Positions 7,275 through 25,178 of a stretch of 49,536 bases of DNA are shown one piece after another. Origin of the DNA: Actinomycetota bacterium. Lineage in GTDB: Bacteria; Planctomycetota; Phycisphaerae; JAACET01. A program made the position numbers and the translations under genes. A model generated the notes under the pieces. The model was not told the DNA's origin and ran no database searches. It saw nothing but the letters and a program-made list of their open reading frames with translations. The stretch spans positions 1 through 49,536 of the forward strand of contig JAACET010000002.1 of assembly GCA_011682385.1 (NCBI GenBank), given 5' to 3'. Each line of letters starts with the position of its first letter. Position 1 is the stretch's first letter.

Positions 7275-7281
7275 AATTGTT

Positions 7282-8178: not shown

Positions 8179-8214
8179 CAGCAGCATAGGTGATTGGCGC
8201 AAAGGCGAGGGCCT

Positions 8215-8236
8215 TTTGGCCCTCGCTCGACGGTTG
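8215..8236 (+). terminator. GC-rich hairpin downstream of the PEP-CTERM gene (possible terminator, no clear T-tract)
   Basis: GCGAGGGCC-TTTT-GGCCCTCGC forms a perfect 9-bp stem with a 4-nt loop, 37 nt after the stop at 8178. It is followed by TCGACGG rather than a U-run. Confidence 0.4.
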
Positions 8237-8348
8237 AAACTTGCGATCTCCGGCTGGGCCATCAGCGTACAGGGATGGTGTAGCCGGTTCGTGAGCCTTT
8301 ATGTATGTGGGGTACGGCCGGAGGCCGCCATGAGGATGCAACGATATA

Positions 8349-9845
8349 ATGTCAAAGAATATGCTGTTTCGGGTCGCATTGGTTGCTCAGACTCTCTTGC
8401 TCGTCGGATCGGCCATGGCGGAAGAAGCTGCCGACCGAGGCCATCGCATCTTGCTGGAGAAGGGGCTTCAAATCGAGGCCCGGGTGTATCCCTGGACCAC
8501 GAGCAGTTTTGACCTGAACCGTTGGCAGGATTCGAATTTCACGTCGGCGAATTTCGAGACGGTGAATAGCGTGTCGTGGCTGGGGACGGCGCCGGGGATT
8601 CCTTGGTCGCGTGTCGATCCCGGGGGCCATGCGGAACTGACCGCCATGGAACTGTCCTACTTGACGAACATGGTGGGCTTTCAGTATCGGGATGAGCAGA
8701 ACCTCAGCGATCCTGCGGAGGTGGCCCTGGCAGCCACGTGGCTGGCGTCGAACCGAACGAGGTATCCGAATGTGCTGGGGTACACGAATCAATGGGGCAC
8801 TACGGTCAGCACGACCCACATGCGAACGTACATGCAACAGGCACAGCCGGACATGGTCATGTTCGACACCTACCCGTTCAAAGGGAGCAACCCGGCCGGG
8901 GGCAGCCCGACGGAACTGTACAATACGATGGTCAAGTACCGGAATCTGGGCTTGGGGGGTAACGACGCTACGGGCAATACGCCGATCCCCTACGCGTTGT
9001 ATCTTCAGACGTTCAAGGGCGGCGGCTGGGATCGGTTCCCATCGGATTCGGAAATGCGTCTGAATCAGTTCGCCGCCTGGACTTTCGGATACACGTTCGT
9101 CACGGCATGGGTGTACAACGCGCCGAACTCGACGTACCAATCGCCTTTTTTCAACGGGCTGGGCGACGGGTCTCCCACGGCGGCGTTCAATAAGATCGCC
9201 GAAACCAATCGGCAAAGTCGGAACCTTGGCAAGACACTGGTTCGCCTGCTCAGTACCGATGTTCGCTTTATTGCGGGTAAGCATATGGAGGAGGAATGGC
9301 AATGGTGGCCCCCCGGTTATGTGGATGTAGTGAAGGACAACGATACCCCATCGGGAATGTCCGCCTGGAACTCGAGTGCCGATCCTTACATCACGAATAT
9401 CTCTGCGTCGAACTTGGGCAACAAGAACGATGGGCTGAAAGGGGACGTGCTGGTGGGCTATTTCGAACCCCTATTGGAATCGGATGACGGTCCGGAGTAT
9501 AATGATGAGATATACTTCATGATTGCCAACGGGTTGTCCGACAAGAACGGTTTGGTTTCGGAAACCAGGCAACAGATCACGATCGATTTCGATTTCGGCG
9601 TCAGCGGCATCGACAGCCTTCAGAGACTCAGCAGGGAAACCGGCTTGGTCGAGGTTGTGTCGCTTTTGCCTCTGGGTGGTGGGGGTGGTGGGTCACAATA
9701 CCGTTTGGCCTTGACGCTGGACGGCGGGACCGGAGACCTCTTCAAGTTCAACACCGGCGCGCCGTTCATTGTACCGGAACCTGCATCGTTGGGTATGGTC
9801 GGATGTTCGCTGCTGGTGGCGATGTTGGTGCGACGGCGGTTCTGA
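8349..9845 (+). CDS. Secreted PEP-CTERM-anchored protein, function unknown (possibly glycoside-hydrolase-like)
   Basis: Signal peptide is [24 protein letters not shown]. The C-terminus is [24 protein letters not shown] (PEP-CTERM). A Gly run (GGGGGG) sits before the tail. Confidence 0.8.
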
Positions 9846-9957
9846 TCATTTGCGAATGGGCAAGAGAATGACATTGTGGAAAGGGCTTTTCTGTACGAAC
9901 CTTGTGAGATCGAAGTCCAAACTCTCCGTCTTAGGCTGTCCGGACGCTCGTCTCCGA

Positions 9958-10716
9958 ATGGCTCGTGCATGGTTTTTCATCCGTGAACTTATGATGTTTT
10001 CCTTTGGTCCAATCAGCGGAATCGTTTCTACCGTCCGGGGTGCGAAGCCCGCACGTTGGCGGCATAGCTGCTTCCGCAGGAACCTACACGCTTTTACACT
10101 TATAGAATTATTAGTGGTGGTGGCTATCATCGCCCTGCTGGTCTCCTTACTACTGCCTTCTTTGCAGAAGGCACGGGAGATGGCCAAGAGTGCCGTCTGC
10201 CAAAGCAATCAGAAGCAAATAGGCTTGGCTATGGCCATGTACATGCAGGATTACAATGGCTACGTGCCCTGCGGTCTGACATCGCCACCGGCTATCGAAA
10301 CTCGCGTGTACGGCCATTTCCTTTTGCCTTACATTCCCTGGGGTCAGATCAACATGCCGAAGCCCACTGAAGTAAATGTCTTCATGTGCCCGGCCAACGA
10401 TTTTAACTGGAACTCCCATGGGCTACGCTTCAATCTCGGGGAAAATAGCTGGTACATGAACATGAACTACGAGAACTGGGCCCGTCCCATCGAGTACGCA
10501 AAGCCTAGTCGCTGCATAATGCTCGGCGACGGCAACCCGGAGTATTTTGGGAATATTATGATCAACTACCAAGGGCCTCCCGATGGTCTGCCGTCATATC
10601 ACGTGGGCTATGTACACCTCGACGGGGCCAATTTCCTCTATTTTGATATGCATGTTGAATGGCGCGAGAACAACTATTTGGAAAGGCGGGCCGACTTGAC
10701 CCAATCGCCGTGGTGA
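9958..10716 (+). CDS. Prepilin-type N-terminal cleavage/methylation domain protein (pseudopilin-like, H-X9-DG/DUF1559-like)
   Basis: [32 protein letters not shown] is a class III signal. The C-terminal [16 protein letters not shown] resembles the H-X9-DG motif. The start is uncertain (ATG candidates at 9856, 9868, 9958, 9991). The listed 9769 start overlaps the upstream gene. Confidence 0.8.
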
Positions 10717-10773
10717 TCTTGCGGACCATTTCAACGAACACCGAACCTCCCCCAGAGACGAAAGGCTAAAAAA

Positions 10774-12084
10774 ATGATTCCCAAAGATTACTCTCTCTCC
10801 AGGAATCTTACTGCTTCTACCGTTGCGGCCCTGTGCTTAATTATCTTCCATGGCTGCATGGCCACGGCGAACGATGTCGGCGGCATAGCTGACTTGACTG
10901 TCACCAGGTGTGATAATCCACCGACCATCGACGGCGATCTTAAGGACCGCTGCTGGAAGAAAGCAGCCCAGACTGGACCGTTCTCGAACTTCATGCCGAA
11001 TGAAGCCCTAACCCAGAAAACCATCGCCTATCTGACCTATGATGACAATAACCTCTACATCGCCTTTCAGTGTTTTGAGTCTAAGCCCGGCGGAATCGTG
11101 GCTACCAAAACTCAGAGGGATTCATACGTTTGGGATGATGATTCAGTCGAGGTTTTCCTGGATACGAATCTGGACCGCAAGACCTATTACCACTTCATCG
11201 TAAACACGCTAAATGCGCAGTACGATGAATTTGGACACAAGAATCCCAGATGGAACGGCCAATGGCGTTCGGGCGTGAAGATCCATAAGGATTACTGGGT
11301 CGCAGAGCTGGCTATTCCCTTTAAGATACTGAAGACCGAAAGTGACACTTGGGGAGTGAACTTCACGCGTGAAAGGCGCGGTCAGCCGTCTGAGAGTAGT
11401 ACCTGGTCTGCGTTGCGAAATAGCTTTCACAAACCGGAGGAGTTCAAGACTATAGATGGCCTGGACGTATCCTTCTATGCTTCGCTCAAATTAGGCGAGG
11501 CAACCATAGGCAATCTGGTGGGCACGAACCAGGCCCAAGTACAGGTGGAAAACAAGGCCGATGACAGAAAACTGATACTCAAGCTGACCGTGACCGAACC
11601 AAAGGGCAAGACCACAGAACATACCCAGGCTGTCGACGTACCGAGTGGAGCACAGGCCACGCTGTCTGCGGGCTACCTGTTGTCGGAGCCAGGCCTGCAC
11701 AAGTTCGTTCTGGACATTGTGGACGTGGCAGCGTCCAGAAGTATCTATGAGATATCACTGAAGAGGCGTGTTCCTCAGTTGCTGGGTTTGGTTCTACCGA
11801 CATCTATCTACTATGAGGATGATGATTCAATAGCGGCCGAGATAATGGTCAACGCGGCCGATGACCTCAGGGCCAAGCTTCAGATGGAGATAAAAGTAGC
11901 AGACGATAAAGGCAACACAGTGTCGCAGAAGACACTGCCAGCACCGAAGCAAAAGGAGTTCCTGGATTACGACATTTCAGGTCTTGGCAGGGGCAAATAC
12001 CTTTTCGAGGTCAAGCTTATCAGAGACGGCAATACCGCCGCATCTGCAGAGAAGGAATTTGAGAAAATCGAAGGATTCTGGTGA
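10774..12084 (+). CDS. Secreted CBM9-like (DOMON-type) carbohydrate-binding protein
   Basis: It has a signal peptide. DGDLKDRCWKKA...YLTYDDNNLYIAFQCFE...DDSVEVFLDTNLDRKTYYHFIVN...WVAELAIPFKIL...WGVNFTRER matches the family-9 CBM-like pattern. Confidence 0.7.
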   Translation: MIPKDYSLSRNLTASTVAALCLIIFHGCMATANDVGGIADLTVTRCDNPPTIDGDLKDRCWKKAAQTGPFSNFMPNEALTQKTIAYLTYDDNNLYIAFQCFESKPGGIVATKTQRDSYVWDDDSVEVFLDTNLDRKTYYHFIVNTLNAQYDEFGHKNPRWNGQWRSGVKIHKDYWVAELAIPFKILKTESDTWGVNFTRERRGQPSESSTWSALRNSFHKPEEFKTIDGLDVSFYASLKLGEATIGNLVGTNQAQVQVENKADDRKLILKLTVTEPKGKTTEHTQAVDVPSGAQATLSAGYLLSEPGLHKFVLDIVDVAASRSIYEISLKRRVPQLLGLVLPTSIYYEDDDSIAAEIMVNAADDLRAKLQMEIKVADDKGNTVSQKTLPAPKQKEFLDYDISGLGRGKYLFEVKLIRDGNTAASAEKEFEKIEGFW

Positions 12085-12140: not shown

Positions 12141-14105
12141 GTGAACAAACTAATCCCTTTTCTGCCAACGAAGGAATCCCTACTGATGCTCATATTAGTA
12201 TTCGCATGCATGATGCTTTTGGGTTTATCGTCAATTCCGAACTCCTGCGCAAGTGCTGGCACTATCGAAGTCGATGGCAAGAGCTATCGCGTTATAGAAC
12301 ACGCTGAAGATCATCCATCCTCGCTGTTCTCAGGAGCGGATAGAGATCGGGGCTACGTGGTGTTCACAAGAGAAGATCCCACCGGGATATATCCGAACTC
12401 ATACCCGGCCCTGGGTGAATTGGTCAAGGAAATCAAGGTTTTTGCCTCACCGGGTGAATACGAGCCGATAAGTTTTGCAGTCTACTCACTTAAAGACCTG
12501 GACCAGATCAGAGTAGAGGTTAGCAACTTCGTGAATGAGCAACACCAGAAACTCACGAAGGAATACATTGACGTTCGGTCCGTAACGTGCTGGTTGCAGG
12601 CCGTCAAAGGAGGCTTCTCCTCTCCCGGCAGGGTATATAAAATGGTGCCTGAGCTGTTGGAGAAGGCGGTGCCGCTGGATATGGAGGCCAAGACCTGCAA
12701 ACAATATTGGCTGACCGTACACGTGCCAAAAGGGACCTTGCCGGGCGTTTACAGCGGCGGTGTGAAAATATCCTCGTCCAATGCAGAGGATTTGCAGATA
12801 CCAGTTGAACTGAAAGTCCTTCCAATTGATTTGCCCAATGAGCTTCCTTACGTTATCGGCTGTTGGGTGGGAATCTCCGGTATGCCTACTCGGGTGAACA
12901 AGATCGGGCGTTACGCGTGGGAGGAAATCCCAGTTCGGTTCAAGGACATGAAAGAGCACGGGATGAACAGTATGGTCTGGGATTGTCCGGACTCCTCATT
13001 TCAATACGAAATGATGGGAGTTCGCGGGTCCGGCAAGCTCGAGCTGGATTTTACCACGGACAACAAGATCATTGAGATGTACAAGCAGGCCGGTTTCCGT
13101 GGACCAATCATTATCGAGTTGTCCAAATACACCACCAGTTTGGCTAATTTTCTCCAAATGAATTTTCCCAATTCATATTACCGAGAGGGCAACAGGGGAA
13201 GCCACTGTCAACCTCCTGTGGACAAGACTCCGCCGGAGTACATAGAAGCTTATAAGGAAGGGCTCAGGCAGATGTATCAGAACGCCAAGGAGAACGACTG
13301 GCCGGAGATCATCTGGCATATCAACGATGAGCCGGTGCATCAGGGGATGGAGGTAATAAGAACGGCCGCTGCCCAGTACAAATGGGCCAAAGAGGCGGTA
13401 CCAGAAGTTAGAACCTTCTGCACGCTCTACGATGACGATTCTTTGGCGGAGTCGGAAAGAATATTTAAGATGTTCGCTGGCTATCTCGATGTGCGAACGA
13501 CGTGGCCCGGCTTTGAGAACGAAGAATACAAGCAACTTAACGAACGGATGATAGGCCAGGGCGTTTACAAAGAATGTTGGATCGTCAGCATTGAGCTGGA
13601 CAAGCCCGAAATGGGAGCCTTTACACGAGCAAGAGTCAAATCAGGTCTAAAGATCAGAAAGGATGGCGTAACGGGATCCTTCTATTGGCACTACGGTTAT
13701 ATGGGCCAAAAAGCCGGTGGCGGACACATCGGCGTTAAGGATGGCTGCTGGGATCCGCACACAGACTTCCCCGTAAGACAGGTAGCCTTGTCGTATCGTA
13801 GCCCGGATAACTCAGCCGTTCCTACACTTGCGTGGGAAGGAATACGGGAAGGTATAGATGATCTGAGGTATATCACCGCCCTGGAGGATCTGATTTCGCG
13901 GGCAAGTGCACAGGCCGATCCTGAACTCAGGGGCCAGATCATCAAGGGGCAGAAAATCTTGCAGGGCATTCTGGATTCTTTGCCGTGGGTAAAGATTGAC
14001 CGAATGAGTACTTCTGCCGTGAGTAACTCTCAGATGAGTGAGTATCGCCGCAAGATCGCCGTGGCGATCATGGACCTAAGCGAAGCTTTAGAACGCTGCA
14101 AGTAA
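12141..14105 (+). CDS. Paralogue 1 of a secreted GH123/DUF4091-like putative glycoside hydrolase (core only, no N-terminal jelly-roll)
   Basis: The signal peptide is ...MLILVFACMMLLGLSSIPNSCASA, so ATG 12186 is an alternative start. Core strings shared with the next three genes include PGEYEP, KQYWLTVHVPKGTLPGVYSGGVKI, MGVRGSGKL, NDWPEIIWHINDEP and PTLAWEGIREGIDD. Confidence 0.65.
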   Translation: MNKLIPFLPTKESLLMLILVFACMMLLGLSSIPNSCASAGTIEVDGKSYRVIEHAEDHPSSLFSGADRDRGYVVFTREDPTGIYPNSYPALGELVKEIKVFASPGEYEPISFAVYSLKDLDQIRVEVSNFVNEQHQKLTKEYIDVRSVTCWLQAVKGGFSSPGRVYKMVPELLEKAVPLDMEAKTCKQYWLTVHVPKGTLPGVYSGGVKISSSNAEDLQIPVELKVLPIDLPNELPYVIGCWVGISGMPTRVNKIGRYAWEEIPVRFKDMKEHGMNSMVWDCPDSSFQYEMMGVRGSGKLELDFTTDNKIIEMYKQAGFRGPIIIELSKYTTSLANFLQMNFPNSYYREGNRGSHCQPPVDKTPPEYIEAYKEGLRQMYQNAKENDWPEIIWHINDEPVHQGMEVIRTAAAQYKWAKEAVPEVRTFCTLYDDDSLAESERIFKMFAGYLDVRTTWPGFENEEYKQLNERMIGQGVYKECWIVSIELDKPEMGAFTRARVKSGLKIRKDGVTGSFYWHYGYMGQKAGGGHIGVKDGCWDPHTDFPVRQVALSYRSPDNSAVPTLAWEGIREGIDDLRYITALEDLISRASAQADPELRGQIIKGQKILQGILDSLPWVKIDRMSTSAVSNSQMSEYRRKIAVAIMDLSEALERCK

Positions 14106-14201
14106 GGATACGTAATGTCAAAGGATTTCGATAGAATCGAAGGGTTTGGTGAAGGCTACACCGCCTCCTCATCAACAGCATAAACAAAAAGGAGTCTTGA
14201 A

Positions 14202-16655
14202 ATGGCGAAAGTCCAGCTAACGTTACGAACAAATGTCTGTGCAATTGGATTCGGCCTGGTTCTTCTCGTGGCCGGATCGGCCTGCGGGCAAAACGTGATC
14301 TATAACGGCAACTTTGAGCGAGGAGCTTATGATAAGTTGCCGACGGGCTGGAAGCATATTTCCTGGATAGGCGGCAAGAAGTTCGAGACGGGCAAATTCG
14401 ACGTCGGGCTCAGCCCGGACGTCAATGCCGGGAACGGAAAGAAGTGCCTCAAGATCACTGGCAGCCAGATCAGCGAAAAAGGCAAGGAGATGTGCCGGGC
14501 GGGCGTGCAGAGCCGTCCGTTCACCTGGGCGCCGGACATGAAGTACACGATAAGGTTCTTCTACAAGACCGATGTCAAGAAGACGCAACAGGGCTATGCA
14601 CCGGCATATATAGCCATCCGTGGCAATGTCGGTGCTGAATGGTCAGAGAAGTGGCTCAAGGATACCAAAGGCACCTGGCAGATGATGACGGGTGTCTTTC
14701 GTTACGTCGGGCCCAGAGAAGAGGGGTCTATTCAGTTGCGCGGCTACGCTGAGGGGGACATATTGTTCGACGAAATTATCATTGAGCCGGCCGGAAAGGC
14801 CTTGGTCGTCGAGGTGGATGGAAAAAAGTACGCGGTGGAAGAGCATGAGGAAAAACATCCGCCGGCGCCACTATCGGATGAGGACCGGAACCGCGGTTAT
14901 ACTGTTTTCAAGAGAGGCGACCCGGCCGGCATATACCCTACTTCATATCCCGCTCCTGGAGAACTAATCCAGGATCTCAAGACCTTTGCCACGCCGGGCG
15001 AATACGAGCCGGTTGATTTTGCTCTCTATCCGTTGAAGGATCTACAGCAGGTTCGCGTTGAGGTCAGCGATCTGGCAGATGAGAAAGGTCGGGTTCTAAG
15101 TAAAGATTGTATCGACGTTCGTAGTGTCAAATGTTGGATACAGGCGGCGGCCAGGAGTTATAAGGTCGTTCCTGAGTTGCTGGACAAGACCGGCCCGCTT
15201 GATCTGAAGGCCAAAGTCCCGCAACAATACTGGCTGACGTTTCACGTTCCCTCGGATACTCCCGCGGGCAAGTACAAAGGCAAGATAACTATCACTCCGG
15301 AGAATGGCCCCAGCAGCGAGATCATGCTGGGCCTGCGGGTACTGCCTTTCACTCTCGCTGAGACACCCTATAAGTTCGGTTGCTGGGTAGACATCTCCGC
15401 TATGCCGGGCCCCTTACGTGAGAAAGGTCGTTATTCGTGGGAGGAAATCCCGGTTCGGTTCAAGGACATGAAAGAGCATGGGATGAACAGTATGGTCTAC
15501 GATGTTCCGGATTCCTCATTCGATCCCAAAATGATGGGAGTTCGCGGTTCAGGCAAACTCGATATGGACTTTTCCACGGACAACAAGATCGTTGAGATGT
15601 ACAAGCAAGCCGGCTTTCGTGGACCAATCGTTGTCGAGTTTTCCAAATACACCACCAATTTGTCTAAATTTCTCCAAATGAATTTTCCCAATTCATATTA
15701 CAAAGGCGGCAACAGGGGAGGCCACTGTCAGCCACCTGTGGATAAGACCCCGCCGGAGTACATTGAAGGCTATAAGGAGGGCATCAGGCAGATGTACCGC
15801 AATGCCAAGGAGAACGACTGGCCCGAGCTGATATGGCACGTCAACGACGAACCGGCGTACCAGGGAATGGAGGTCATAAAGACAGCCGCGGCGGAGTATA
15901 GGTGGGCCAAAGAAGCCACGCCTGAGGTCAGGACCTGGTGCGTCCTGAAGTCGAACGACGAGGACCTAATAAGACTCTTTTCTCCTTATGTTGACATATT
16001 ATGCAACTATGTCAGTAGCGAAGAAGACTATCTCTTGACCACGAAGTTGCTGGCCGAAGGCGTTTACAAAGAACGGTGGGGATACATAGGGCCCGGAAAT
16101 GTGGAAACTGACGCTTACGAAAGCGGCAGATTGGACTCGGGATTCAAGTTCAAGAGAACCGGCATGACGGGGATGTTCTTTTGGGGTTACGGCTTTATGG
16201 GGCAGGGCAGCACCATTGCTGGTCCGGGCAACCATCTCGGCGCGAAGAATGGCCAGTGGGATGAATATATTGATTTTCCAACGTCAAGATCGGGAGCATC
16301 ATGGGGATCCAAAAAAATTGCCTTTAGCTACCGTTCGCCCAAGGATCCTCTTGAGGTCGTTCCCACGCTGGCCTGGGAAGGGGTGCGTGAGGGAATAGAC
16401 GATGTGAAATACATTGTTACGCTTGAGGGTTTGATCGCCGAGGCCAAAGCCAGCGGCAGCAAGGAGGCAAGAGACGAGGCCCTTTCTGCCCAACGCATGC
16501 TCAAGGATATGTTAGCAGCCATCCCCTGGGGTGTGACAGATATTGACTGGGCGACGGCTGTGCCTGTAGAGCCGTTATCTAACGAGCAGATGAGTAAATA
16601 CCGCTGGCAGATTGCTCTGAAAATCATGAAACTTTCTGAGTTACTGGGACGTTGA
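14202..16655 (+). CDS. Paralogue 2: secreted CBM-like jelly-roll plus GH123/DUF4091-like core
   Basis: RBS AAAGGAG precedes the start. The signal peptide ends in ...VAGSACGQN. The N-terminal NGNFERG...W...FDEIIIEPAG module is CBM4_9-like. The core carries WHVNDEPAYQG. A unique insert (PTSRSGASWGSKK) distinguishes it from copy 4. Confidence 0.7.
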   Translation: MAKVQLTLRTNVCAIGFGLVLLVAGSACGQNVIYNGNFERGAYDKLPTGWKHISWIGGKKFETGKFDVGLSPDVNAGNGKKCLKITGSQISEKGKEMCRAGVQSRPFTWAPDMKYTIRFFYKTDVKKTQQGYAPAYIAIRGNVGAEWSEKWLKDTKGTWQMMTGVFRYVGPREEGSIQLRGYAEGDILFDEIIIEPAGKALVVEVDGKKYAVEEHEEKHPPAPLSDEDRNRGYTVFKRGDPAGIYPTSYPAPGELIQDLKTFATPGEYEPVDFALYPLKDLQQVRVEVSDLADEKGRVLSKDCIDVRSVKCWIQAAARSYKVVPELLDKTGPLDLKAKVPQQYWLTFHVPSDTPAGKYKGKITITPENGPSSEIMLGLRVLPFTLAETPYKFGCWVDISAMPGPLREKGRYSWEEIPVRFKDMKEHGMNSMVYDVPDSSFDPKMMGVRGSGKLDMDFSTDNKIVEMYKQAGFRGPIVVEFSKYTTNLSKFLQMNFPNSYYKGGNRGGHCQPPVDKTPPEYIEGYKEGIRQMYRNAKENDWPELIWHVNDEPAYQGMEVIKTAAAEYRWAKEATPEVRTWCVLKSNDEDLIRLFSPYVDILCNYVSSEEDYLLTTKLLAEGVYKERWGYIGPGNVETDAYESGRLDSGFKFKRTGMTGMFFWGYGFMGQGSTIAGPGNHLGAKNGQWDEYIDFPTSRSGASWGSKKIAFSYRSPKDPLEVVPTLAWEGVREGIDDVKYIVTLEGLIAEAKASGSKEARDEALSAQRMLKDMLAAIPWGVTDIDWATAVPVEPLSNEQMSKYRWQIALKIMKLSELLGR

Positions 16656-16728
16656 GCGGCCAAAAGTCGGGCTAAAATAGGATCGGCTGTCAGGTCGGCG
16701 TTAGCCGTTAAAAACAAGGAGCAGTAGA

Positions 16729-19155
16729 ATGAAACGCGATTACAAATTGTTGCAGGTGTGCGAGAAGGTGGCCGTATTAGGCTTCTTGCTTCTGATGCCA
16801 CACTGTGTTTTTGGCGCAAACCTTATCACCAACGGCAACTTTGAGCGGGGGGCAGTGGGCGCTGCGCCTGTGGGATGGAAGCCATCTGTCTGGGCCGGTG
16901 GCAATCGCAACTCCGGCAAATTCAGCATCAAGCTCAGCACTGACGTACAAGCCGGTTGCGGCCGGAAATGTCTGCAAATCACCGGAAGCGAACTCGGCGA
17001 GGACAACGGCAAGGAAATATGTCGCGGCGGAGTCTGGAGCAAACCGTTCTTTCTCCAGCCCGACACGCAGTATGAGATCAGCTTCTTTTACAGAACCGAC
17101 ATAACCAAAACTCAACAGGGCTATGCACCGGCCTGGATATCCATTGGCGGGAACGTTTCTGTCGAATGGCGTGAGAACTGGCTGGCCGATACCGGCGGCA
17201 CCTGGAAGATGGTCACCGGCGTCTTTCATCACATCGGCGCAAGAGAGAAGGTCAAGATTCTCCTAAGAAACAATGCCGAGGGCGACGTATGGTTCGACGA
17301 AGTAATTGTTAGGCCCGCCGGTCAGGCTAAGACCGTAACCGTGCATGGAAAAAAATACGCCGTCGCAGAACATAAAGAAGACCACGAAATGACGCCGTTG
17401 ACAGACGAGGACTTAAACCGGCAGTACGTGGTCTTTAACAGAGCTGTCAACCCGGGCGCAATATATCCCACTTCATACCCGGCTCCCGGAGAAAAGATCG
17501 ATCAGCTCCGAACGTTCGCAACCCCTGGCGAGTATGAGCCTGTTAGTTTCACAATTTTTCCCCTCAAGGATCTTGCTAATGTGAAGGTCGAAGTAACTGA
17601 TTTGATTGACCCAAGCGGCAAGATTCTCAGCAAGGACTGCATCGATATTCGCAGTGTCAAATCCTGGATCCAGGGCGTTGGCCGAGGATATATGGTTGTG
17701 CCAGAACTGCTGGAAGAAGCCATACCCCTCGATTTGAAAACCAGGGTCTCACAGCAATACTGGCTGACCTTTCATATTCCAGAGGACGCCTCTGCCGGCA
17801 GGTACAAGGGCTCAATAACCATCACTGCAGAAAACGCCCCGAGCGCCAAGATCGATCTTGGAATGAGAATACTGCCTTTCACTCTCGACGGGGAGATTCC
17901 TTACGCCGTCGGCTACTATGCGGACATCTCCGCTATGGGTCCGCACCACCCCACTAACCGCTATTCCTGGGAGGAAATAGAGGTTCGCCTGAGGGACATG
18001 AAAGACCACGGGATGAACTGCCTGGTTTATAGTTATCCTGATTCTTCCTGGGACATAGAACTGATGGGAGTGCGTGGCTCGAAAGAGGTCAATCTGGACT
18101 TTAGCGTAGATAATCGCGTCATCGACATCTACAAGAAATCTGGCTTCACCGGACCGATCATAGTCGATTTATCAAGACTCTCCAACAGGCTGGCTGGCTT
18201 TCTGGGGCTCAATTACCCAAGTTCCTATTATCGTGGTGGAAGTAGAGGCGATACCCTTTTGCTCCTGGAAGATCAGGCCCCGCCGGAATTCGTCAAAGGT
18301 TTCAAGGATGCAATAAAACAAATGTGGCAGAACGCCAGGGAAAACGATTGGCCCGAACTGATTTACTATCCCATTGACGAACCGGCCTATCAGGGCGAAA
18401 GAACGATAAAGGCATCTATCCTGCAGTACAAGTGGATCAAGGAGGCAGTGCCCGAAGCACGAACGCTTTGCCCGGTCAAACCGAAGGGATTTCCACTGGA
18501 CGAAAAAGAGAAACTGTTCAGGCGGATGGGACCATATCTGGATATCCGAACAGGCCAGCTTTGGGGAACAGAAGAGTCAAAGCAGAACCAGATGCTAATC
18601 GACGAAGGCGTCTATCAGGAAATGTGGATGGTCCTCGGCCCGGCAAATTCTGAGCTTAATGCATACGTCTCCGCCAGAGATTGTTCCGGCTTCAAATTGA
18701 GGAAGACCGGCATGACCGGAATTACATACTGGACCTATGGACAGATGGGCCAGAACGACGGTAAAGGCGGAAAACTGGGCATAAAGGACGGCAAATGGGA
18801 TGAATACATCGATATCCCGGGCAAGTTCATAGCCGTATCCTACCGTTCGCCCAGGAACCCTATCGTGCCGGTACCCACTCTTGCATGGGAAGGCGTCAGA
18901 GAGGGTGTGGATGATCTGAAATACGTTGCCACATTGGAGAGGCTAATTGCACAGGCTAAGAAAAGCGATGTGCAAGAGACCAAAGACAAGGCCGCAGCAG
19001 CAGAAAAGATGCTTGAGTCAATTATTAGCGAGATTCCATGGACAATGGCTAGTATAGATTGGTGGGAAACCTCAGAAACGGAAGTTCTCCCCGACACTCA
19101 AATGAACAAGTTTCGCTGGAAGATTTGTCTGAAGATCATGGAACTTTCTCTCTGA
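16729..19155 (+). CDS. Paralogue 3: secreted CBM-like jelly-roll plus GH123/DUF4091-like core (most divergent copy)
   Basis: RBS AAGGAG precedes the start, and the signal peptide ends in ...MPHCVFGAN. The architecture matches copies 2 and 4. The core motif is YYPIDEPAYQG. Confidence 0.7.
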   Translation: MKRDYKLLQVCEKVAVLGFLLLMPHCVFGANLITNGNFERGAVGAAPVGWKPSVWAGGNRNSGKFSIKLSTDVQAGCGRKCLQITGSELGEDNGKEICRGGVWSKPFFLQPDTQYEISFFYRTDITKTQQGYAPAWISIGGNVSVEWRENWLADTGGTWKMVTGVFHHIGAREKVKILLRNNAEGDVWFDEVIVRPAGQAKTVTVHGKKYAVAEHKEDHEMTPLTDEDLNRQYVVFNRAVNPGAIYPTSYPAPGEKIDQLRTFATPGEYEPVSFTIFPLKDLANVKVEVTDLIDPSGKILSKDCIDIRSVKSWIQGVGRGYMVVPELLEEAIPLDLKTRVSQQYWLTFHIPEDASAGRYKGSITITAENAPSAKIDLGMRILPFTLDGEIPYAVGYYADISAMGPHHPTNRYSWEEIEVRLRDMKDHGMNCLVYSYPDSSWDIELMGVRGSKEVNLDFSVDNRVIDIYKKSGFTGPIIVDLSRLSNRLAGFLGLNYPSSYYRGGSRGDTLLLLEDQAPPEFVKGFKDAIKQMWQNARENDWPELIYYPIDEPAYQGERTIKASILQYKWIKEAVPEARTLCPVKPKGFPLDEKEKLFRRMGPYLDIRTGQLWGTEESKQNQMLIDEGVYQEMWMVLGPANSELNAYVSARDCSGFKLRKTGMTGITYWTYGQMGQNDGKGGKLGIKDGKWDEYIDIPGKFIAVSYRSPRNPIVPVPTLAWEGVREGVDDLKYVATLERLIAQAKKSDVQETKDKAAAAEKMLESIISEIPWTMASIDWWETSETEVLPDTQMNKFRWKICLKIMELSL

Positions 19156-19242
19156 GTGTGGCGACCTTGAAGTGCGAGAAACAGGCCGGAGCCTGAGATT
19201 AGTAATTACCACTGGAGTTTAGCAATAACAGGGAGCTGTGAA

Positions 19243-21654
19243 ATGAAGGTACCCGACAGAACAGTAAAGATATTGGCGGCAACAATAAGTGTGATGCTTT
19301 TAACACCGGGTTTTGCGCTGGGTGTTAACCTTATTAACAATGGCAGCTTCGAGCGAGGAGACTACGACAAGCTGCCGACTGGTTGGCAGCATATTTCCTG
19401 GATAGGAGGCAAGCGGTTCGAGGAAGGGAAGTTCGACGTCGGGCTCAGCCCGGACGTCAATGCCGGCTGCGGAAAGAAGTGCCTCAAGATCACTGGAAGC
19501 CAGATCAGCGAAAAAGGCAAGGAGATGTGCCGGGCGGGCGTGCAGAGCCGTTCGTTCACCTGGGCGCCAGACATGAAGTACAAGATAAGATTCTTCTACA
19601 AAACGGATGTCAAGAGGTTGCAGTATGGCTATGCACCGGCATACATAGCCGTCCGTGGCAATGTCGGTGCTGAATGGTCAGAGAAGTGGCTCAAGGATAC
19701 CAAAGGCACCTGGCAGATGATGACGGGCGTCTTTCATCACGTCGGGCCCAGAGAAAAGGGGTCTATTCAGTTGCGCGGCTACGCTGAAGGGGACGTATTA
19801 TTCGACGAGATTATCATTGAGCCGGCCGGAAAGGCCTTGGTCGTCGAGGTGGATGGAAAGAAATATGCGGTTGAAGAGCATGAGGAAAAACATCCGATGG
19901 CGCCACTATCGGATGAGGACCGGAACCGCGGTTATACCGTTTTCAAGAGAAGCGCCCCGGACGGCATATATCCTACCTCGTATCCCGCTCCTGGCGAGAA
20001 GGTCGAGAATATCAGAACGTTTGCCACACCGGGAGAATACGAGCCGGTTGATTTTGCTCTCTATCCGTTGAAGGACCTGAAGCAGGTTCGCGTTGAGGTA
20101 AGCGATCTGGTAGATGAGCAGGGCCAGGTTCTCAGTAAAGATTGTATCGACGTTCGTAGCGTCAAATGCTGGATACAGAAGGTAGCCAGGGGTTATAAGG
20201 TTGTCCCGGAACTGCTGGACAAGACGAACCCGCTTGATTTGAAAGCCAAAGTCCCGCAGCAGTATTGGCTGACGTTTCATGTGCCCTCGGACGCTCCGGC
20301 GGGCAAGTACAAAGGAAAAATAACTATCACTCCGGAGAATGGCCAGAGCAGCAAGATCATGCTGGGGCTGCGGGTACTGCCTTTCACTCTCGCTGAGACA
20401 CCCTATAACGTCGGCTCTTGGGCATGTATATCCGCTATGCCGGGCCCCTTACGTGAGAAAGGTCGTTATCCGTGGGAGGAAATCTCGGTTCGGTTCAAGG
20501 ACATGAAAGAGCATGGAATGAACTGCATGGTCTGGGATTACCTCGACGCCACATTTGATTATAGAATGATGGGAGTTCGCGGTTCAGGCAAACTCGATAT
20601 GGACTTTTCCACGGACAACAAGATTGTTGAAATGTACAAGCAAGCCGGCTTCCGTGGGCCAATTATCGTTGATTTCTCCAAGTTAGTAACCCATTTGGCC
20701 ATTTTTACCAACATGGATTTCCCCAGCTCTTATTACCGAGCCGGCAATAGAGGCTCTATGTGTCAGCCACCCGTGGACAAGACGCCGCCTGAATTCATAG
20801 AAGCCTACAAGGAAAGCATAAGACAGATTTACAGAAACGCCAAAGAGAACGACTGGCCCGAGCTTATCTGGCATATTAATGATGAGCCGGCCTATCAGGG
20901 AATGGAGGTCATAAAGACGGCTGCGGCGCAGTATAGGTGGGCGAAGGAAGCTGTGCCGGAGGTCAGAACATGGTGCGTCCTGAAGTCGAACGATGAAGAC
21001 ATAATAAGACTCTTTTCTCCTTATGTTGACATATTAACCAACTATATCAGTAGCGAAGAAGACTATCTCTTGACCAAGAAGCTGCTGGCCGAAGGCGTTT
21101 ACAAGGAAAGGTGGGGATACATAGGTCCCGGAAATGTGGAGACTAACGCTTACGAGAGTTGCAGATTGTCCTCGGGATTCAAGTTCAAGAGAACCGACAT
21201 GACGGGTATGTTCTTTTGGTGCTACGGCTTTATGGGACAACAAGACGGCAAGGGCGGGAATTTGGGCATAAAAAATGGCAAGTGGGATGAATATGTTGAT
21301 ATCCCAGGTAAACACATTGCCTTTAGCTACCGTTCGCCCAAGGATCCTCTTGAGGTCGTTCCCACGCTGGCCTGGGAAGGTGTACGTGAGGGAATAGACG
21401 ATGTGAAATACATTGTTACGCTTGAGGGCTTGATCGGGCAGGCCAAAGCCAGCGGCAGCAAGGAGGCAAGAGACGAGGCACTTGCTGCGGAACGTATGCT
21501 CAAGGATATGTTGGCAACCATTCCCTGGGGTGTGGCAGATATTGACTGGTGGACGGCTGCGCCCGTGGAACCTTTTTCTAACGAGCAGATGAGTAAATAC
21601 CGTTGGCAGGTCGCCCTGGAAATCATGAAGCTGACTGAACTTTTATGTAATTGA
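19243..21654 (+). CDS. Paralogue 4: secreted CBM-like jelly-roll plus GH123/DUF4091-like core
   Basis: RBS GGGAG precedes the start, and the signal peptide ends in ...TPGFALGVN. The core motif is WHINDEPAYQG. The termini are near-identical to copy 2 at the nucleotide level. Confidence 0.7.
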   Translation: MKVPDRTVKILAATISVMLLTPGFALGVNLINNGSFERGDYDKLPTGWQHISWIGGKRFEEGKFDVGLSPDVNAGCGKKCLKITGSQISEKGKEMCRAGVQSRSFTWAPDMKYKIRFFYKTDVKRLQYGYAPAYIAVRGNVGAEWSEKWLKDTKGTWQMMTGVFHHVGPREKGSIQLRGYAEGDVLFDEIIIEPAGKALVVEVDGKKYAVEEHEEKHPMAPLSDEDRNRGYTVFKRSAPDGIYPTSYPAPGEKVENIRTFATPGEYEPVDFALYPLKDLKQVRVEVSDLVDEQGQVLSKDCIDVRSVKCWIQKVARGYKVVPELLDKTNPLDLKAKVPQQYWLTFHVPSDAPAGKYKGKITITPENGQSSKIMLGLRVLPFTLAETPYNVGSWACISAMPGPLREKGRYPWEEISVRFKDMKEHGMNCMVWDYLDATFDYRMMGVRGSGKLDMDFSTDNKIVEMYKQAGFRGPIIVDFSKLVTHLAIFTNMDFPSSYYRAGNRGSMCQPPVDKTPPEFIEAYKESIRQIYRNAKENDWPELIWHINDEPAYQGMEVIKTAAAQYRWAKEAVPEVRTWCVLKSNDEDIIRLFSPYVDILTNYISSEEDYLLTKKLLAEGVYKERWGYIGPGNVETNAYESCRLSSGFKFKRTDMTGMFFWCYGFMGQQDGKGGNLGIKNGKWDEYVDIPGKHIAFSYRSPKDPLEVVPTLAWEGVREGIDDVKYIVTLEGLIGQAKASGSKEARDEALAAERMLKDMLATIPWGVADIDWWTAAPVEPFSNEQMSKYRWQVALEIMKLTELLCN

Positions 21655-21698: not shown

Positions 21699-22841
21699 AT
21701 GAGATCCAAAGAACGAGTCCTCCGAATCTTCAGGGGAGAATCCGTAGACAGGCTAGCATGTTTCGAGCAGACGATAGCCTGCTCCGTGGCTTCGGACATT
21801 CTTGGCAGGCCGGCGCTAACCAGCGGCAGCTCGCTGGAGTATCACGAGGCCCGCGCCTGGTGGGAAGGTGAGGAAGCTCACGATGCCTTCAAGCTTCAGG
21901 TCCTCAAAGACAATCTTGAACTTTCCGAAGAACTCGGGTTTGACATGGTGCGTCCCAGATTATCGGTTTTAGAATCTAAGCCGAGCTGCCGTATCAATGA
22001 ATATACTTTCGGTTTTGGCAATTCCCAGCACGGTACATTTTTCACCATGAGTTTTGATCCAAATACTCAAATTTGGGGAATGGTCAAAAAACCAGTGCAA
22101 TGCTCTAACCCATATTCTGTTGTCCATCGTATGCAAAGAATTCTTGAACATCTGACTGACGAAACTACTGATTCGAATTTTTCAGCCTTGGATTGGCTGG
22201 TGGGCAAAGTTGGTGATCAAAAAGCTGTTCTTTGCTCAACCGGTGAAATATCGATTCCTATCGACCAGGAATGGCTAATCGCTTGTGCTGACGATCCCGG
22301 AATTGTGGAACGCTACTTGGATTGCATTGTTGAGATATCTCTGCGTAAGTTGCCGTTCGTCAAGAAACACGGGGCCGACGTAATATGGGCGGGGGGGCTA
22401 ATTGGTGGCAGCGATGGGCCGGTGTACAGCCCCGAGATATTCAAACATCTTCTTTTGCCTCGCTTGAAGAGGATCGTTACGAAGTGTCACGAACTAGGGC
22501 TATTCTACGTGTATCGTACCGACGGCAATATATGGTCCATCGCTGAGAAACTCCTGGGCGAGTCAGGCATAGACGGCTATGGAGTGAGCGATATCGACGC
22601 GGGCATGGACATCGGCGACGTCAGAAAACGTTTCCCAAAGCTGGTATTGTGTGGCAACGTCAACAATAAGACTCTCCAGCTCGGAACCGTTGAACAGGTC
22701 AAGGCGGAAACCAGGGCCTGCGTAGACAAGGCACTTGGAGGCGGGCACATCTTTGGCTCGTCTAATTCCATTATTCACGGAACGCCCGCTGACAACGTCA
22801 TAGCCATGTTCGAAACCGCCAGGGAATACGGAAGGTATTAA
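21699..22841 (+). CDS. Uroporphyrinogen decarboxylase (URO-D)-like family protein, cytoplasmic
   Basis: N-terminal MRSKERVLRIFRGESVDRL is typical of the family. The C-terminal end is LCGNVNN...GTVEQVKAETRACVDKALGGGHIFGSSNSIIHGTPADNVIAMFETAREYG. No signal peptide. Confidence 0.7.
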   Translation: MRSKERVLRIFRGESVDRLACFEQTIACSVASDILGRPALTSGSSLEYHEARAWWEGEEAHDAFKLQVLKDNLELSEELGFDMVRPRLSVLESKPSCRINEYTFGFGNSQHGTFFTMSFDPNTQIWGMVKKPVQCSNPYSVVHRMQRILEHLTDETTDSNFSALDWLVGKVGDQKAVLCSTGEISIPIDQEWLIACADDPGIVERYLDCIVEISLRKLPFVKKHGADVIWAGGLIGGSDGPVYSPEIFKHLLLPRLKRIVTKCHELGLFYVYRTDGNIWSIAEKLLGESGIDGYGVSDIDAGMDIGDVRKRFPKLVLCGNVNNKTLQLGTVEQVKAETRACVDKALGGGHIFGSSNSIIHGTPADNVIAMFETAREYGRY

Positions 22842-22844
22842 GCA

Positions 22845-24257
22845 ATGAGCAAAAGCAGCACACGGACACTCTTTGTAGATGACGCTGACACCGAAAGCAT
22901 GCGCAATTTACATCGCATTATTCACCCGGCCAAGAAGTATGAGGGAAATCCCGTTGTGGCCGCCGAACAGAAATGGGAGGGCAAAGAGTTACTGCTCGGC
23001 GGCACGGTCCGGAAGGAAGGCGAGATTCACCGTATGTGGTACCAAAGCAATCTCAACGGAACCTACCTGGACCTATATGCAGAAAGCAATGACGGCATTG
23101 GCTGGACCAAACCGTGTCTTGGCAAATATGAAGATTTTGAGGGAAGCCTTGAGAACAACATTTACATGAGCCGGATGGCCTTTCGGTCAGACAAGCGATC
23201 GCCGGCTTCTGTCAAGCAAGACCATAATCAGAATGTCCTTTATACTCCGCATATGGGCCAGGGCAAAACGTACACAATGCTGTCGTATGATTATGGGCGG
23301 TCAGGCTATGGGCCTTACGATGGATATTACCTTGCCTTTTCAGATGACGGTGTGAATTGGACTGACGGTCCCACAGAGCCGGTGATTCCCGGCTATGCCG
23401 ATGTGGGATGGTTTATATTCGACGAAAAAGACCAAGTATTCCGGGGCATAGTAAAATCCTTCATAAATATCCGAGGATACTCTCGACGATCCCTACTCTG
23501 GACCCAGAGCGCGGATGGCTTCAACTGGACCCTCCCTCGCCCGGCCTTCATACCCGACCTGGAAGACGATCGCTGGGCTGAAGGTCGAGCTGGCTGCTTT
23601 ACGCAATACTATGGGATGCCAATCGAACGCTATGAATCGGTCATCCTCGGATTTCTTCAGGTTTTCAGGTGTACCAACGGACACACATCTTCCGATGGTA
23701 CAATCGACGTGCAACTCACTGCCAGCCGAGACGGCAAAAACTGGCAACGTGTGGGCGATCGTCGCACCATTGTGGAGCGAGGTGAATATGGCAGCTGGGA
23801 CTGGGGGCTTATTGAACCGGGCAACGCTCTGGTCGTGGATGGCGACCAAGTTAGAATATATTATACTGGTTACAATTCCCTCCACGGCCAATGGACTCCG
23901 GATCCGCAGGGCAAGAAGCTTGCTATCGGAATGGCAAGCTGGCCGAGGGATCGTTTCGTTGGTATGAGGGCTGGTTCGAACGGCGGGGAACTAGTAGTTC
24001 GTTCAAATAACATCGGCGATGAATTACATATCAATGCAAATGCTGCCAACGGTTCCTTGGCCGTCGAACTTGCAGACCAGACTGGCAGGCCGATCAAAGG
24101 TTTTGAAGCATCAGAATGTAAGCTGCTTTGTCGCGACGGACTTGACCACACTGTAGCTTGGCAAAGTAAACCATCGACAAAACCATTCAAAGGCAAGTGT
24201 ATACAAATCAAACTGAAGCTCACCTCGGCTGAAGTCTTCTCGCTGTGGTGGACATAA
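22845..24257 (+). CDS. Cytoplasmic beta-propeller glycoside-hydrolase-like protein (GH43/GH32/DUF377 clan-like)
   Basis: No signal peptide. LFVDDADTESMRNLHRIIHPAKKYEGNPVV...WEGK...RMWYQS...SNDGIGWTKP, plus repeated DG.NW blades (SDDGVNWTDG, SADGFNWT, SRDGKNWQR). It shares this architecture with 33248..34639. Confidence 0.45.
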   Translation: MSKSSTRTLFVDDADTESMRNLHRIIHPAKKYEGNPVVAAEQKWEGKELLLGGTVRKEGEIHRMWYQSNLNGTYLDLYAESNDGIGWTKPCLGKYEDFEGSLENNIYMSRMAFRSDKRSPASVKQDHNQNVLYTPHMGQGKTYTMLSYDYGRSGYGPYDGYYLAFSDDGVNWTDGPTEPVIPGYADVGWFIFDEKDQVFRGIVKSFINIRGYSRRSLLWTQSADGFNWTLPRPAFIPDLEDDRWAEGRAGCFTQYYGMPIERYESVILGFLQVFRCTNGHTSSDGTIDVQLTASRDGKNWQRVGDRRTIVERGEYGSWDWGLIEPGNALVVDGDQVRIYYTGYNSLHGQWTPDPQGKKLAIGMASWPRDRFVGMRAGSNGGELVVRSNNIGDELHINANAANGSLAVELADQTGRPIKGFEASECKLLCRDGLDHTVAWQSKPSTKPFKGKCIQIKLKLTSAEVFSLWWT

Positions 24258-24269
24258 AAGGAATTGAAT

Positions 24270-25178
24270 ATGGTCGCAGAAAAAAACAAGCTGGGTGTTG
24301 GCGTTATTGTACCAGTCATAACGCCACTTGCGAGTGATGGAGATATCGATCAGCAAGGCCTTGAACGTGTGATCAGTCATTGCATGGCTGCCGGCGTGCA
24401 CGGAATACTCATCTTGGGCAGTGCAGGCGAGGGCATCTGCTTCCGGTCGAGGCAAAGGCAGAGAATTATCAATGCAGCAAAGCGCGTAACGGAAAATCAT
24501 ATTCCCCTATATGTCGGCGTGTTTGATGCAAGTACGAGCTTGGTGAGGGAAAAAATCAAATCTGCCGAAGGAAACGGCGCTGATGCCGTCGTGGTAACGC
24601 CCCACTACTATCTTCGATCACGCAACCAAGATGAGATTGTGCGGCATATGGAAATATGTGCTGCTAACGCCACCGTGCCGGTGTTGGCGTACAATAATGA
24701 GGGAACAGTGCACGTGAACATCGCAGCCCAGACCTTCAAAAAGATAATGGCAATAGAGAACGTGATAGGGCTCAAGGAAAGCACTCAGGATTGGAAGCAG
24801 TTTGAGTCAGAGCTTGCACTGCGGGGAAACACTGGTTTCAAAGTTATTGCGGGAGGGCAGTCCATTCTTGGGATGGCCATGCTGGCTGGGGCTGACGGCT
24901 GCATGTCCGGGGTAGCCAATTACGCGCCGAACCTCGTTGTTGAGTTATACGATGCGGCAAGAAAACAAGACGCTAAAAAGGTTTTGATGCTCCAGAGCAA
25001 AGTTATGAGGCTTGACGAGGCGACCCATGCCGGCGACTTCTTTCTGGCTGGCATCAAGTACGCTTGCTCGCTGCTTGGGCTGTGCCACGACTATTTGTCC
25101 GAGCCCTTTGAACGCCTTACGAACCCTCAGAAGGAAGTTGTTAGGATCGCCTTGCAGCAAGAAGGACTGATCAAGTGA
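24270..25178 (+). CDS. DHDPS/N-acetylneuraminate-lyase family class I aldolase
   Basis: AAAGGAA RBS, then ATG 24270 (the listed start 24264 is a TTG). Motifs are VPVITPL...GILILGSAGEG, VVTPHYY and the Schiff-base lysine context VIGLKEST. Confidence 0.8.
   Translation: MVAEKNKLGVGVIVPVITPLASDGDIDQQGLERVISHCMAAGVHGILILGSAGEGICFRSRQRQRIINAAKRVTENHIPLYVGVFDASTSLVREKIKSAEGNGADAVVVTPHYYLRSRNQDEIVRHMEICAANATVPVLAYNNEGTVHVNIAAQTFKKIMAIENVIGLKESTQDWKQFESELALRGNTGFKVIAGGQSILGMAMLAGADGCMSGVANYAPNLVVELYDAARKQDAKKVLMLQSKVMRLDEATHAGDFFLAGIKYACSLLGLCHDYLSEPFERLTNPQKEVVRIALQQEGLIK

Follow-up and report, generated by a model that had tools for sequence, protein, structure and literature searches.

A tandem array of four GH123-superfamily paralogues with an invariant Asp-Glu pair in a Planctomycetota contig

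Introduction

In a contig deposited under the name Actinomycetota bacterium and placed by GTDB in the Planctomycetota (Phycisphaerae; JAACET01), four large paralogous genes follow one another on the same strand, which raises the question of what kind of enzyme they encode and how the copies differ. The contig is JAACET010000002.1 (NCBI GenBank assembly GCA_011682385.1); positions 1 to 49,536 of its forward strand, the whole stretch of DNA that was analysed (49,536 nucleotides, nt), are referred to as the window, and all coordinates are window positions. The genes lie on the + strand at 12141-14105 (copy 1, 654 amino acids, aa), 14202-16655 (copy 2, 817 aa), 16729-19155 (copy 3, 808 aa) and 19243-21654 (copy 4, 803 aa), and are present in the list of open reading frames (ORFs) with the coordinates and lengths given by a first-pass annotation, which was made from the DNA letters alone. 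That annotation took them for secreted enzymes resembling glycoside hydrolase family 123 (GH123)/DUF4091, with an adjacent Asp-Glu (D-E) pair in every copy. This reading is supported by Pfam models of the N-terminal region, by a profile of the wider clade, by AlphaFold and Foldseek, and by the alignment of the D-E pair.

GH123 has lately grown from three gut and soil enzymes into a superfamily that extends across the three domains of life, and as reconstituted by CAZy it takes in Sumida Groups 1-4. The array proteins belong to this superfamily, because they share its fold and its catalytic motif, and fall into none of the five characterised groups. The reading developed below, to which we assign a probability of about 0.6, is that they are secreted retaining beta-N-acetylhexosaminidases (HexNAc-ases), probably acting on beta-linked N-acetylgalactosamine (GalNAc), which use the D-E pair for substrate-assisted catalysis, are targeted to a polymeric glycan by carbohydrate-binding modules (CBMs), and have sub-functionalised, with a Tyr/Val difference between the copies as the clearest marker.

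Fold and Family Assignment

Searches with Pfam hidden Markov models (HMMs) gave significant similarity. The two GH123 N-terminal models, PF22680 and PF19543, score above cut-off in all four copies, and PF13320 (GH123_cat, formerly DUF4091) reaches 28.6 bits in copy 1 (cut-off 23.1), a partial match that covers positions 48-196 of the 324 in the model. None of the four copies matches an NCBIfam model. Compared as a single sequence with solved structures, copy 1 finds 8K2J (NgaDssm) with an expect value (E) of 2e-8, and the motif HLADEP of the latter lies opposite HINDEP. A profile built from 149 sequences of the surrounding clade and run against the solved structures matches every GH123-type crystal structure, with E from 8.7e-40 to 1e-5: NgaDssm, a Group 3 enzyme, at 8.7e-40, BvGH123 (5L7R) at 8e-31, NgaCa (8K2F, Group 1) at 3.5e-30, CpNga123 (5FQE) at 7e-22 and NaNga (8P4L/8Q8H) at 5e-21, followed by weaker matches to 8K2L, 8K2H and 8K2N.

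Structure prediction leads to the same family. AlphaFold2 models of copies 1 and 2 (predicted local distance difference test, pLDDT, 83 and 86; predicted template modelling score, pTM, 0.86 and 0.88, respectively) both contain a beta-sandwich, then eight alternating strand/helix units, and then a long C-terminal helical bundle, and Foldseek searches of the PDB with these models revealed the similarity to (beta/alpha)8 glycosidases that the GH123 reading predicts. The top 22 matches are, for both models, exclusively GH123/Group 1-4 beta-N-acetylgalactosaminidases, with E from 1e-30 to 5e-22 and template modelling (TM) scores normalised to the target of 0.60-0.73 for copy 1, and E from 1.2e-27 to 1.9e-19 and TM scores of 0.56-0.74 for copy 2. 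The next matches, GH39, GH5 and GH2 structures at about 1e-11, are worse in E by about 19 orders of magnitude (copy 1) or about 8 (copy 2). Like the array proteins, GH20 and GH84 hexosaminidases have an Asp next to a Glu on a (beta/alpha)8 barrel, and they use a substrate-assisted mechanism. However, no GH20 or GH84 structure occurs among the 50 best Foldseek matches listed for either model, so neither is the relevant family.

Predicted Catalytic Pair and Conserved Residues

The adjacent D-E pair is invariant within the array, where it reads HINDEP, HVNDEP, YPIDEP and HINDEP in copies 1 to 4, and its codons were verified in each copy. The predicted catalytic residues are D396-E397 in copy 1 (13326-13331), D549-E550 in copy 2 (15846-15851), D550-E551 in copy 3 (18376-18381) and D547-E548 in copy 4 (20881-20886), all on the + strand. 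In profile alignments the pair corresponds residue for residue to the catalytic D-E of NgaDssm (8K2J), BvGH123 (5L7R), NgaCa (8K2F) and CpNga123 (5FQE). In the AlphaFold2 model of copy 1 it sits three residues past the fourth barrel strand (strand 390-393, then I-N-D-E-P), and it is after this strand that GH123, GH20 and GH84 enzymes have their catalytic residues. Across the clade the Asp is found in 134 and the Glu in 147 of the 149 members. In all five characterised groups the D-E motif occupies the same structural position and catalysis is substrate-assisted (Sumida et al., 2024; PMC11087588).

Nine residues are strictly conserved in GH123 and Groups 1-4, namely D95, W115, D327, E328, Y392, G427, W431, Y466 and R478 in the numbering of NgaLy; most activity is lost in the Y392A and W431A mutants, Y392 being a substrate-contact residue, and D95, W115, Y466 and R478 form a strictly conserved inter-domain clamp that is needed for solubility (PMC11087588). 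These positions were mapped through profile alignments rather than structural superposition and counted across the 149 clade members. W115 (W190 in copy 1), D327-E328 (D396-E397, after barrel strand 4) and Y466 (Y552) are kept, and G427, the Gly before strand 8 (G512), and W431 (W516) are kept in all four copies. The position of D95 (Glu171 in copy 1) is occupied by Glu in all four copies and is variable in the clade (E in 55 members, V in 17, A in 14, and others), while the position of R478 (Ala564) is occupied by Ala in all four copies and by G, Y, A, R or other residues elsewhere. Another Arg, R569, in the motif E-G-x-R-E-G-x-D-D, is present in 147 of the 149 members. Because this residue is nearly invariant while the R478 position varies, the clade appears to have rebuilt its inter-domain interface.

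The position equivalent to Y392 divides the array. It is Tyr in copies 2 (Tyr628, 16083-16085) and 4 (Tyr626, 21118-21120), and Val in copies 1 (Val482, 13584-13586) and 3 (Val635, 18631-18633), again on the + strand, and it falls at the same place in the predicted barrel strand of both models. Tyr occupies it in 136 of the 149 clade members, and the full combination of D-E, Tyr and Trp is found in 117, copies 2 and 4 included. The two closest relatives of the array proteins carry Val (P0005) and Gln (P0004) there.

One sub-branch of the clade (P0009, P0015, P0016 and P0073, from Firestonebacteria and other metagenomes) has T-T-E or S-E in place of x-D-E and Phe in place of the Tyr. Since the polarising Asp is missing, these proteins are probably inactive or mechanistically different.

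Domain Architecture and Accessory Modules

Copy 1 consists of a putative signal peptide, the GH123-type beta-sandwich, the (beta/alpha)8 barrel and the C-terminal helical bundle, and has no N-terminal CBM. Copy 2 combines a putative signal peptide with a CBM4/9-like domain and the GH123-type core, an architecture repeated in copies 3 and 4. The N-terminal 12-mers of the four copies and of the gene upstream of copy 1 are hydrophobic (mean Kyte-Doolittle values of 2.1-3.1; 1.4 and -0.1 in two cytoplasmic-looking neighbours), in agreement with the signal peptides that the first-pass annotation had noticed, and these signal-peptide-like N-termini point to secretion of all four copies and of the product of that upstream gene. 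The start of copy 1 is ambiguous: translation from the GTG at 12141 gives 654 aa, and translation from the ATG at 12186, the start taken by the database gene call and preceded by an AAGGAA motif, gives 639 aa.

The extra jelly-roll that had been proposed for copies 2-4, and for copy 1 not at all, appears in the AlphaFold2 model of copy 2 as an all-beta domain of about 170 aa. It is encoded at 14286-14801 in copy 2, 16816-17325 in copy 3 and 19324-19836 in copy 4 (all + strand). With PF02018 (CBM_4_9) the domains of copies 2 and 3 give sub-threshold matches (E 0.03-0.05), and that of copy 4 gives none. Among homologous N-terminal domains 8 of 21 match this model, the best with E 6e-15, and a profile of the domain finds CBM structures with E from 9e-15 to 2e-7, including 4D0Q (9e-15), 1GUI, a CBM4 (1.6e-9), and 2W5F, a CBM22 (2e-8). 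By these comparisons the domain is probably a divergent CBM4/9-type module with a putative role in binding.

Copy 1 is preceded, as had been noted, by a free-standing CBM9-like gene (10774-12084, + strand, 436 aa). Its product carries Pfam CBM9_1 at aa 52-197 (44.7 bits, cut-off 23.4; E 1.9e-11; HMM positions 1-146 of 185), followed by beta-rich C-terminal domains, and also matches positions 689-815 of the clade HMM, which correspond to a C-terminal extension of some clade members (E 1.2e-7). Further upstream a 1,438-aa protein (1086-5402) contains four Laminin_G_3 (concanavalin-like) domains and could serve this system as a non-catalytic partner. CBM9 and Laminin_G_3 domains, here encoded by separate genes, are fused to the core elsewhere, which argues for a functional link.

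Evolution of the Copies

The four copies share a core of about 600 aa, as first described, and within it are 44-84% identical. Of the shared strings listed in that description, PGEYEP, MGVRGS, NDWPE(L/I)I and PTLAWEG(V/I)REG(I/V)DD occur in every copy, whereas QQYWLTFH.P...YKG.ITI is limited to copies 2-4 and reads KQYWLTVHVP...YSGGVKI in copy 1. Copies 2 and 4 share 84% of their protein residues and about 87% of their DNA positions (synonymous divergence, dS, about 0.5), so that copy 4 is a recent duplicate of copy 2; all other pairs are at 44-58% protein identity, and copy 3 is the most divergent of the four. In a MAFFT alignment copies 2-4 are 44-56% identical to copy 1 and the mean column identity is 71%. 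The ratio of nonsynonymous to synonymous divergence (dN/dS) is 0.09-0.21 in the four pairs with unsaturated dS, that is, 0.09-0.15 for copy 1 against copies 2 and 4 and for copy 3 against copy 2, and 0.21 for copies 2 and 4, values that denote purifying selection. A neighbour-joining tree places copy 3 with P0005, and copies 1, 2 and 4 with P0004.

The similarity between copy 1 and copies 2/4 is not uniform. In the central barrel region DNA identity shifts along 12852-13332 of copy 1, aligned with 15372-15852 of copy 2 (+ strand), in the manner of a gene-conversion mosaic. In the sharpest block (13092-13211 against 15612-15731; alignment columns 480-520) copies 1 and 2 are 88% identical in DNA and 85% at third codon positions, whereas copies 2 and 4 fall from their usual value of about 88% to 67%, and to 48% at third positions. 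In columns 400-480 copy 1 is similar to copy 4 as well as to copy 2. The mosaic indicates that gene conversion took place at least once between copies 1 and 2, probably after an earlier event in which the ancestor of copies 2 and 4 took part. Short-read contigs break within the short mosaic tract, so a chimeric join there is possible. The array would have arisen by duplication, copies 2 and 4 being recent, with conversion between copies 1 and 2, and the copies would since have diverged in the loops after the barrel strands.

The Wider Clade

Word-indexed homologue searches recovered two close relatives, P0004 and P0005, which are 47-50% identical to the array proteins and come from short contigs of one ENA sample. 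A subsequent profile search added almost no further close relatives, and among 185,579 species-representative genomes (GTDB) nothing exceeded 27% identity, so that the host lineage has no representative there. The sequences around P0004 and P0005 are uninformative, and the CBM9 gene has no relationship to the gene that precedes P0004. An exhaustive HMMER search of 1.84 billion clusters at 50% identity returned 15,403 representatives with E <= 1e-3 and 3,430 with E <= 1e-30. The best 150 of these score about 400 bits or more and form the clade, and canonical GH123 must be among the lower-scoring of the 15,403. Named relatives come, among others, from Planctomycetes, Pirellulaceae, Victivallaceae, Verrucomicrobiia, Chthoniobacter, Armatimonadetes, Firestonebacteria and Acidobacteria, and belong mostly to Planctomycetota, Verrucomicrobiota, Lentisphaerota, Armatimonadota and comparable degraders of polysaccharides in the environment. 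PF22680 was found in 52, Laminin_G_3 in 7 and CBM9_1 in 6 of 55 clade members that were sampled.

Elsewhere a 20-kb neighbourhood usually contains a single copy, and occasionally two, as in some genomes of UBP13 and Chthoniobacteraceae (loci L006, at 7892-11572 and 13839-17384, L012 and L014). Four copies in tandem were found in none of the 17 loci fetched, and the present array is thus unusual.

Genomic Context

The array lies within a co-directional glycan/sugar-utilisation locus of about 35 kb with a LacI regulator. Between 184 and 35809 every ORF of at least 150 aa that has a family match or a homologue within the window is on the + strand, and the minus-strand ORFs lie only inside these genes, without family or homologue support. 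Besides the regulator, the CBM9 gene and the four copies, the cluster comprises two PEP-CTERM proteins, a DUF1559/N-methyl prepilin-like protein, URO-D/MtaA-like genes, a DHDPS/NanA-like lyase, a PF12831 FAD oxidoreductase, a fucose-isomerase-like protein, a split transketolase, a DeoC aldolase and BNR/Asp-box proteins. The CBM9 ORF ends 56 nt 5' of copy 1, the gaps between successive copies are 96, 73 and 87 nt, and a URO-D-like ORF starts 44 nt 3' of copy 4. Promoter and terminator scans gave nothing above shuffled expectation, and no + strand terminator was detected in the intergenic gaps.

Four URO-D/MtaA-CmuA-like (methylcobamide methyltransferase-like) genes, at 21699-22841 and 31015-32283 (+ strand) and at 39323-40402 and 43040-44038 (- strand), score far below the NCBIfam equivalog cut-offs; one guess is that they take part in the O-demethylation of methylated sugars. 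Two proteins of about 465 aa (22845-24257 and 33248-34639) are paralogues (24% identity, E 2e-24) with repeated S-x-D-G-x-x-W Asp-box-like motifs, no signal peptide and no annotation. They lie near a BNR_2 protein (34685-35809) and the DHDPS/NanA-like lyase (24264-25178), a grouping that hints at a branch of a sialic-acid-like or keto-deoxy-sugar pathway. PDB sequence searches with three neighbouring proteins gave at most weak matches to 6N1A.

The stretches 7222-8178, 8349-9845 and 9769-10716 encode two proteins with weak, sub-threshold PEP-CTERM tails and the DUF1559/N-terminal-methylation prepilin-like protein, which lies directly 5' of the array. PEP-CTERM and DUF1559/prepilin-like genes are hallmarks of Planctomycetota, Lentisphaerota and Verrucomicrobiota, and suggest that the host, an uncultured bacterium of marine sediment, belongs to the PVC superphylum. 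The best match of the transketolase subunit is 69% identical, and the others, at about 55%, come from Bacillota and Aerophobetes. Towards the end of the window a class-V aminotransferase appears to be split into overlapping or abutting ORFs of 306 and 164 aa (41519-42797, - strand), as does a zinc alcohol dehydrogenase into ORFs of 160 and 231 aa (47512-48679, + strand); these are frameshifts, pseudogenes or sequencing errors.

Proposed Function and Alternatives

By homology each protein, built from a beta-sandwich at the N-terminus, a (beta/alpha)8 catalytic barrel and a helical bundle at the C-terminus, would be a retaining beta-N-acetylhexosaminidase, most likely active on beta-GalNAc. The Asp of the pair would position and polarise the substrate's own 2-acetamido group, which would attack C1 to give an oxazolinium intermediate, and the Glu would serve as general acid/base. 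The CBM4/9 module of copies 2-4, the CBM9 protein beside copy 1 and a resemblance that is closest to the cleft-type enzymes of Groups 3 and 1 suggest that the target is an extracellular polymeric or oligomeric glycan rather than small glycosides, possibly attacked in an endo- or oligosaccharide-releasing mode. Action at the level of polysaccharides does occur in the family, since the GH123 enzyme of Fervidibacter sacchari acts on chondroitin sulfate (PMC11535203). Copies 2 and 4 would retain the full set of D-E, Tyr and Trp, while copies 1 and 3, which carry Val for Tyr, probably differ in specificity or rate.

Several observations weigh against this assignment. Identity to any characterised enzyme in the structural alignments is only 12-17%, and no characterised enzyme is found among the clade members. 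PF13320 falls below cut-off in copy 3 (12.5 bits), does not match copies 2 and 4, and detects just 22 of the 55 sampled clade members (E <= 1e-3). Two of the nine strictly conserved GH123 residues, D95 and R478, are lost, which leaves the inter-domain clamp incomplete, and in copies 1 and 3 a Val takes the place of the substrate-binding Tyr. Finally, the window scans gave no NagA, NagB or AgaS-type matches, and no classic amino-sugar catabolic gene was recognised.

The array itself might be questioned, as collapsed or chimeric repeats, or strain variants, could have been joined in tandem during assembly. Logan contigs do break inside copies 2 and 4, which are mutually 87% identical there, and the mosaic tract of copies 1 and 2 could in principle reflect a chimeric join. 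However, a second public assembly (ENA ERZ23498652, scaffold_216, 45,885 bp) shows 100% identity across 22,412 bp, and the Logan contigs of a 2019 marine-sediment metagenome run contain 93% of the sampled words and, among those listed, cross the CBM9-copy 1, copy 1-copy 2, copy 2-3-4 and copy 4-downstream junctions, at a broadly even depth (7x-30x per bin, most bins about 19x). The copies moreover differ by 13-56% in DNA and each reading frame is intact. In view of the second assembly and the Logan contigs an artefact is highly improbable and is rejected, and the array is genuine.

The clade might keep the GH123 fold and the D-E pair but be no HexNAc-ase, with another specificity or mechanism, acting for example on a different marine or bacterial polysaccharide, with the Glu as acid/base and either a different nucleophile or a differently substituted group at C2. 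The distance in profile score, about 140 bits or less for the characterised structures against about 400 or more for clade members, speaks for such a shift, as do the loss of the D95-R478 clamp, the poor detection by PF13320, and a neighbourhood with a NanA/DHDPS-like lyase, BNR/Asp-box propellers, a fucose-isomerase-like gene, a transketolase and a DeoC aldolase in place of amino-sugar catabolic genes. We consider it unlikely, given that the D-E, Tyr and Trp of substrate-assisted catalysis are kept jointly in most of the clade and in copies 2 and 4, and that all characterised relatives, in five deeply divergent groups and three domains of life, target beta-GalNAc or beta-HexNAc (PMC11087588). 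Alternatively, copies 2 and 4 alone may be efficient enzymes, and copies 1 and 3 weakly active or non-catalytic glycan-binding helpers of substrate capture, which would be compatible with HexNAc-ase activity in copies 2 and 4. The strong reduction in activity of NgaLy Y392A (PMC11087588) makes the Tyr to Val change in copies 1 and 3, and the Val or Gln of their only close relatives, consistent with such a role, but copies 1 and 3 keep the D-E pair, W516 and G512, and their dN/dS is as low as that between copies 2 and 4. Because the Val/Gln state is found on two branches of the neighbour-joining tree (copy 1 with P0004, copy 3 with P0005), it points to a maintained variant and not to decay. We consider this second alternative quite unlikely. 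A further, rather doubtful proposal is that the clade is a functionally new branch on the GH123 fold with a restructured clamp, in which the active site of copies 1 and 3 is retuned beyond plain beta-GalNAc/GlcNAc glycosides, for instance to a modified 2-amino sugar or to a residue other than HexNAc in a marine or bacterial polysaccharide, so that the array would divide the labour on one complex glycan.

Comparison With Characterised Enzymes and Significance

Read as GH123-type HexNAc-ases, the array proteins come closest to NgaDssm (8K2J/8K2K), a Group 3 beta-N-acetylgalactosaminidase that releases oligosaccharides/monosaccharides and comes from a deep-sea sediment metagenome (PMC11087588). 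It is the best match in sequence, for copy 1 as for the clade profile, and in structure (Foldseek E 1e-30 for copy 1 and 1.2e-27 for copy 2; TM score normalised to target 0.73-0.74). The two share the beta-sandwich and (beta/alpha)8 fold, an exactly aligned H-x-x-D-E-P motif, a marine-sediment origin, and counterparts of W190, Y482 (as in copies 2 and 4), R498, G512, W516 and Y552. They differ in that structural alignment gives 15-17% identity, the clamp residues lie in P-D and S-I-R in NgaDssm and are replaced by P-E and L-A in the array proteins, and NgaDssm lacks both CBM modules and a C-terminal helical bundle of this length (about 90 aa).

NgaCa (8K2F/8K2G), the Group 1 oligosaccharide-releasing beta-N-acetylgalactosaminidase proposed as the prototype of the family, is matched by the profile in two segments. 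It is a cleft-type enzyme, whose presumed substrates are long repeating glycans, and it has R498, G502, D450 and the second Arg, R569 (in I-R-x-G-I-x-D-Y), the last of which is invariant in the clade. In contrast to the array proteins, it also keeps the canonical clamp Arg and has no CBMs; identity is 16-17%. BvGH123 (5L7R), CpNga123 (5FQE), NgaP and NaNga (8P4L) share with the array proteins the fold, the D-E pair, the Trp, Tyr and Gly-Trp positions and the Pfam GH123 N-terminal models. However, these canonical GH123 exo-beta-N-acetylgalactosaminidases are 12-15% identical to the array proteins, and are pocket-type, monosaccharide-releasing enzymes of glycosphingolipid or mucin glycans with extra Trp/Gln residues around the GalNAc.

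The array proteins are a variant within a known superfamily, worth biochemical follow-up. The value of the locus lies in enzyme discovery and in better annotation of proteins now called 'DUF4091 domain-containing', and it neither overturns a concept nor brings a conceptual surprise. Four natural paralogues side by side, with a Tyr/Val dimorphism at a substrate-contact site and differing CBM arrangements, offer a ready experiment on the evolution of specificity on the GH123 fold, and could reveal GalNAc-containing (or other) polymers that are turned over in marine sediment.

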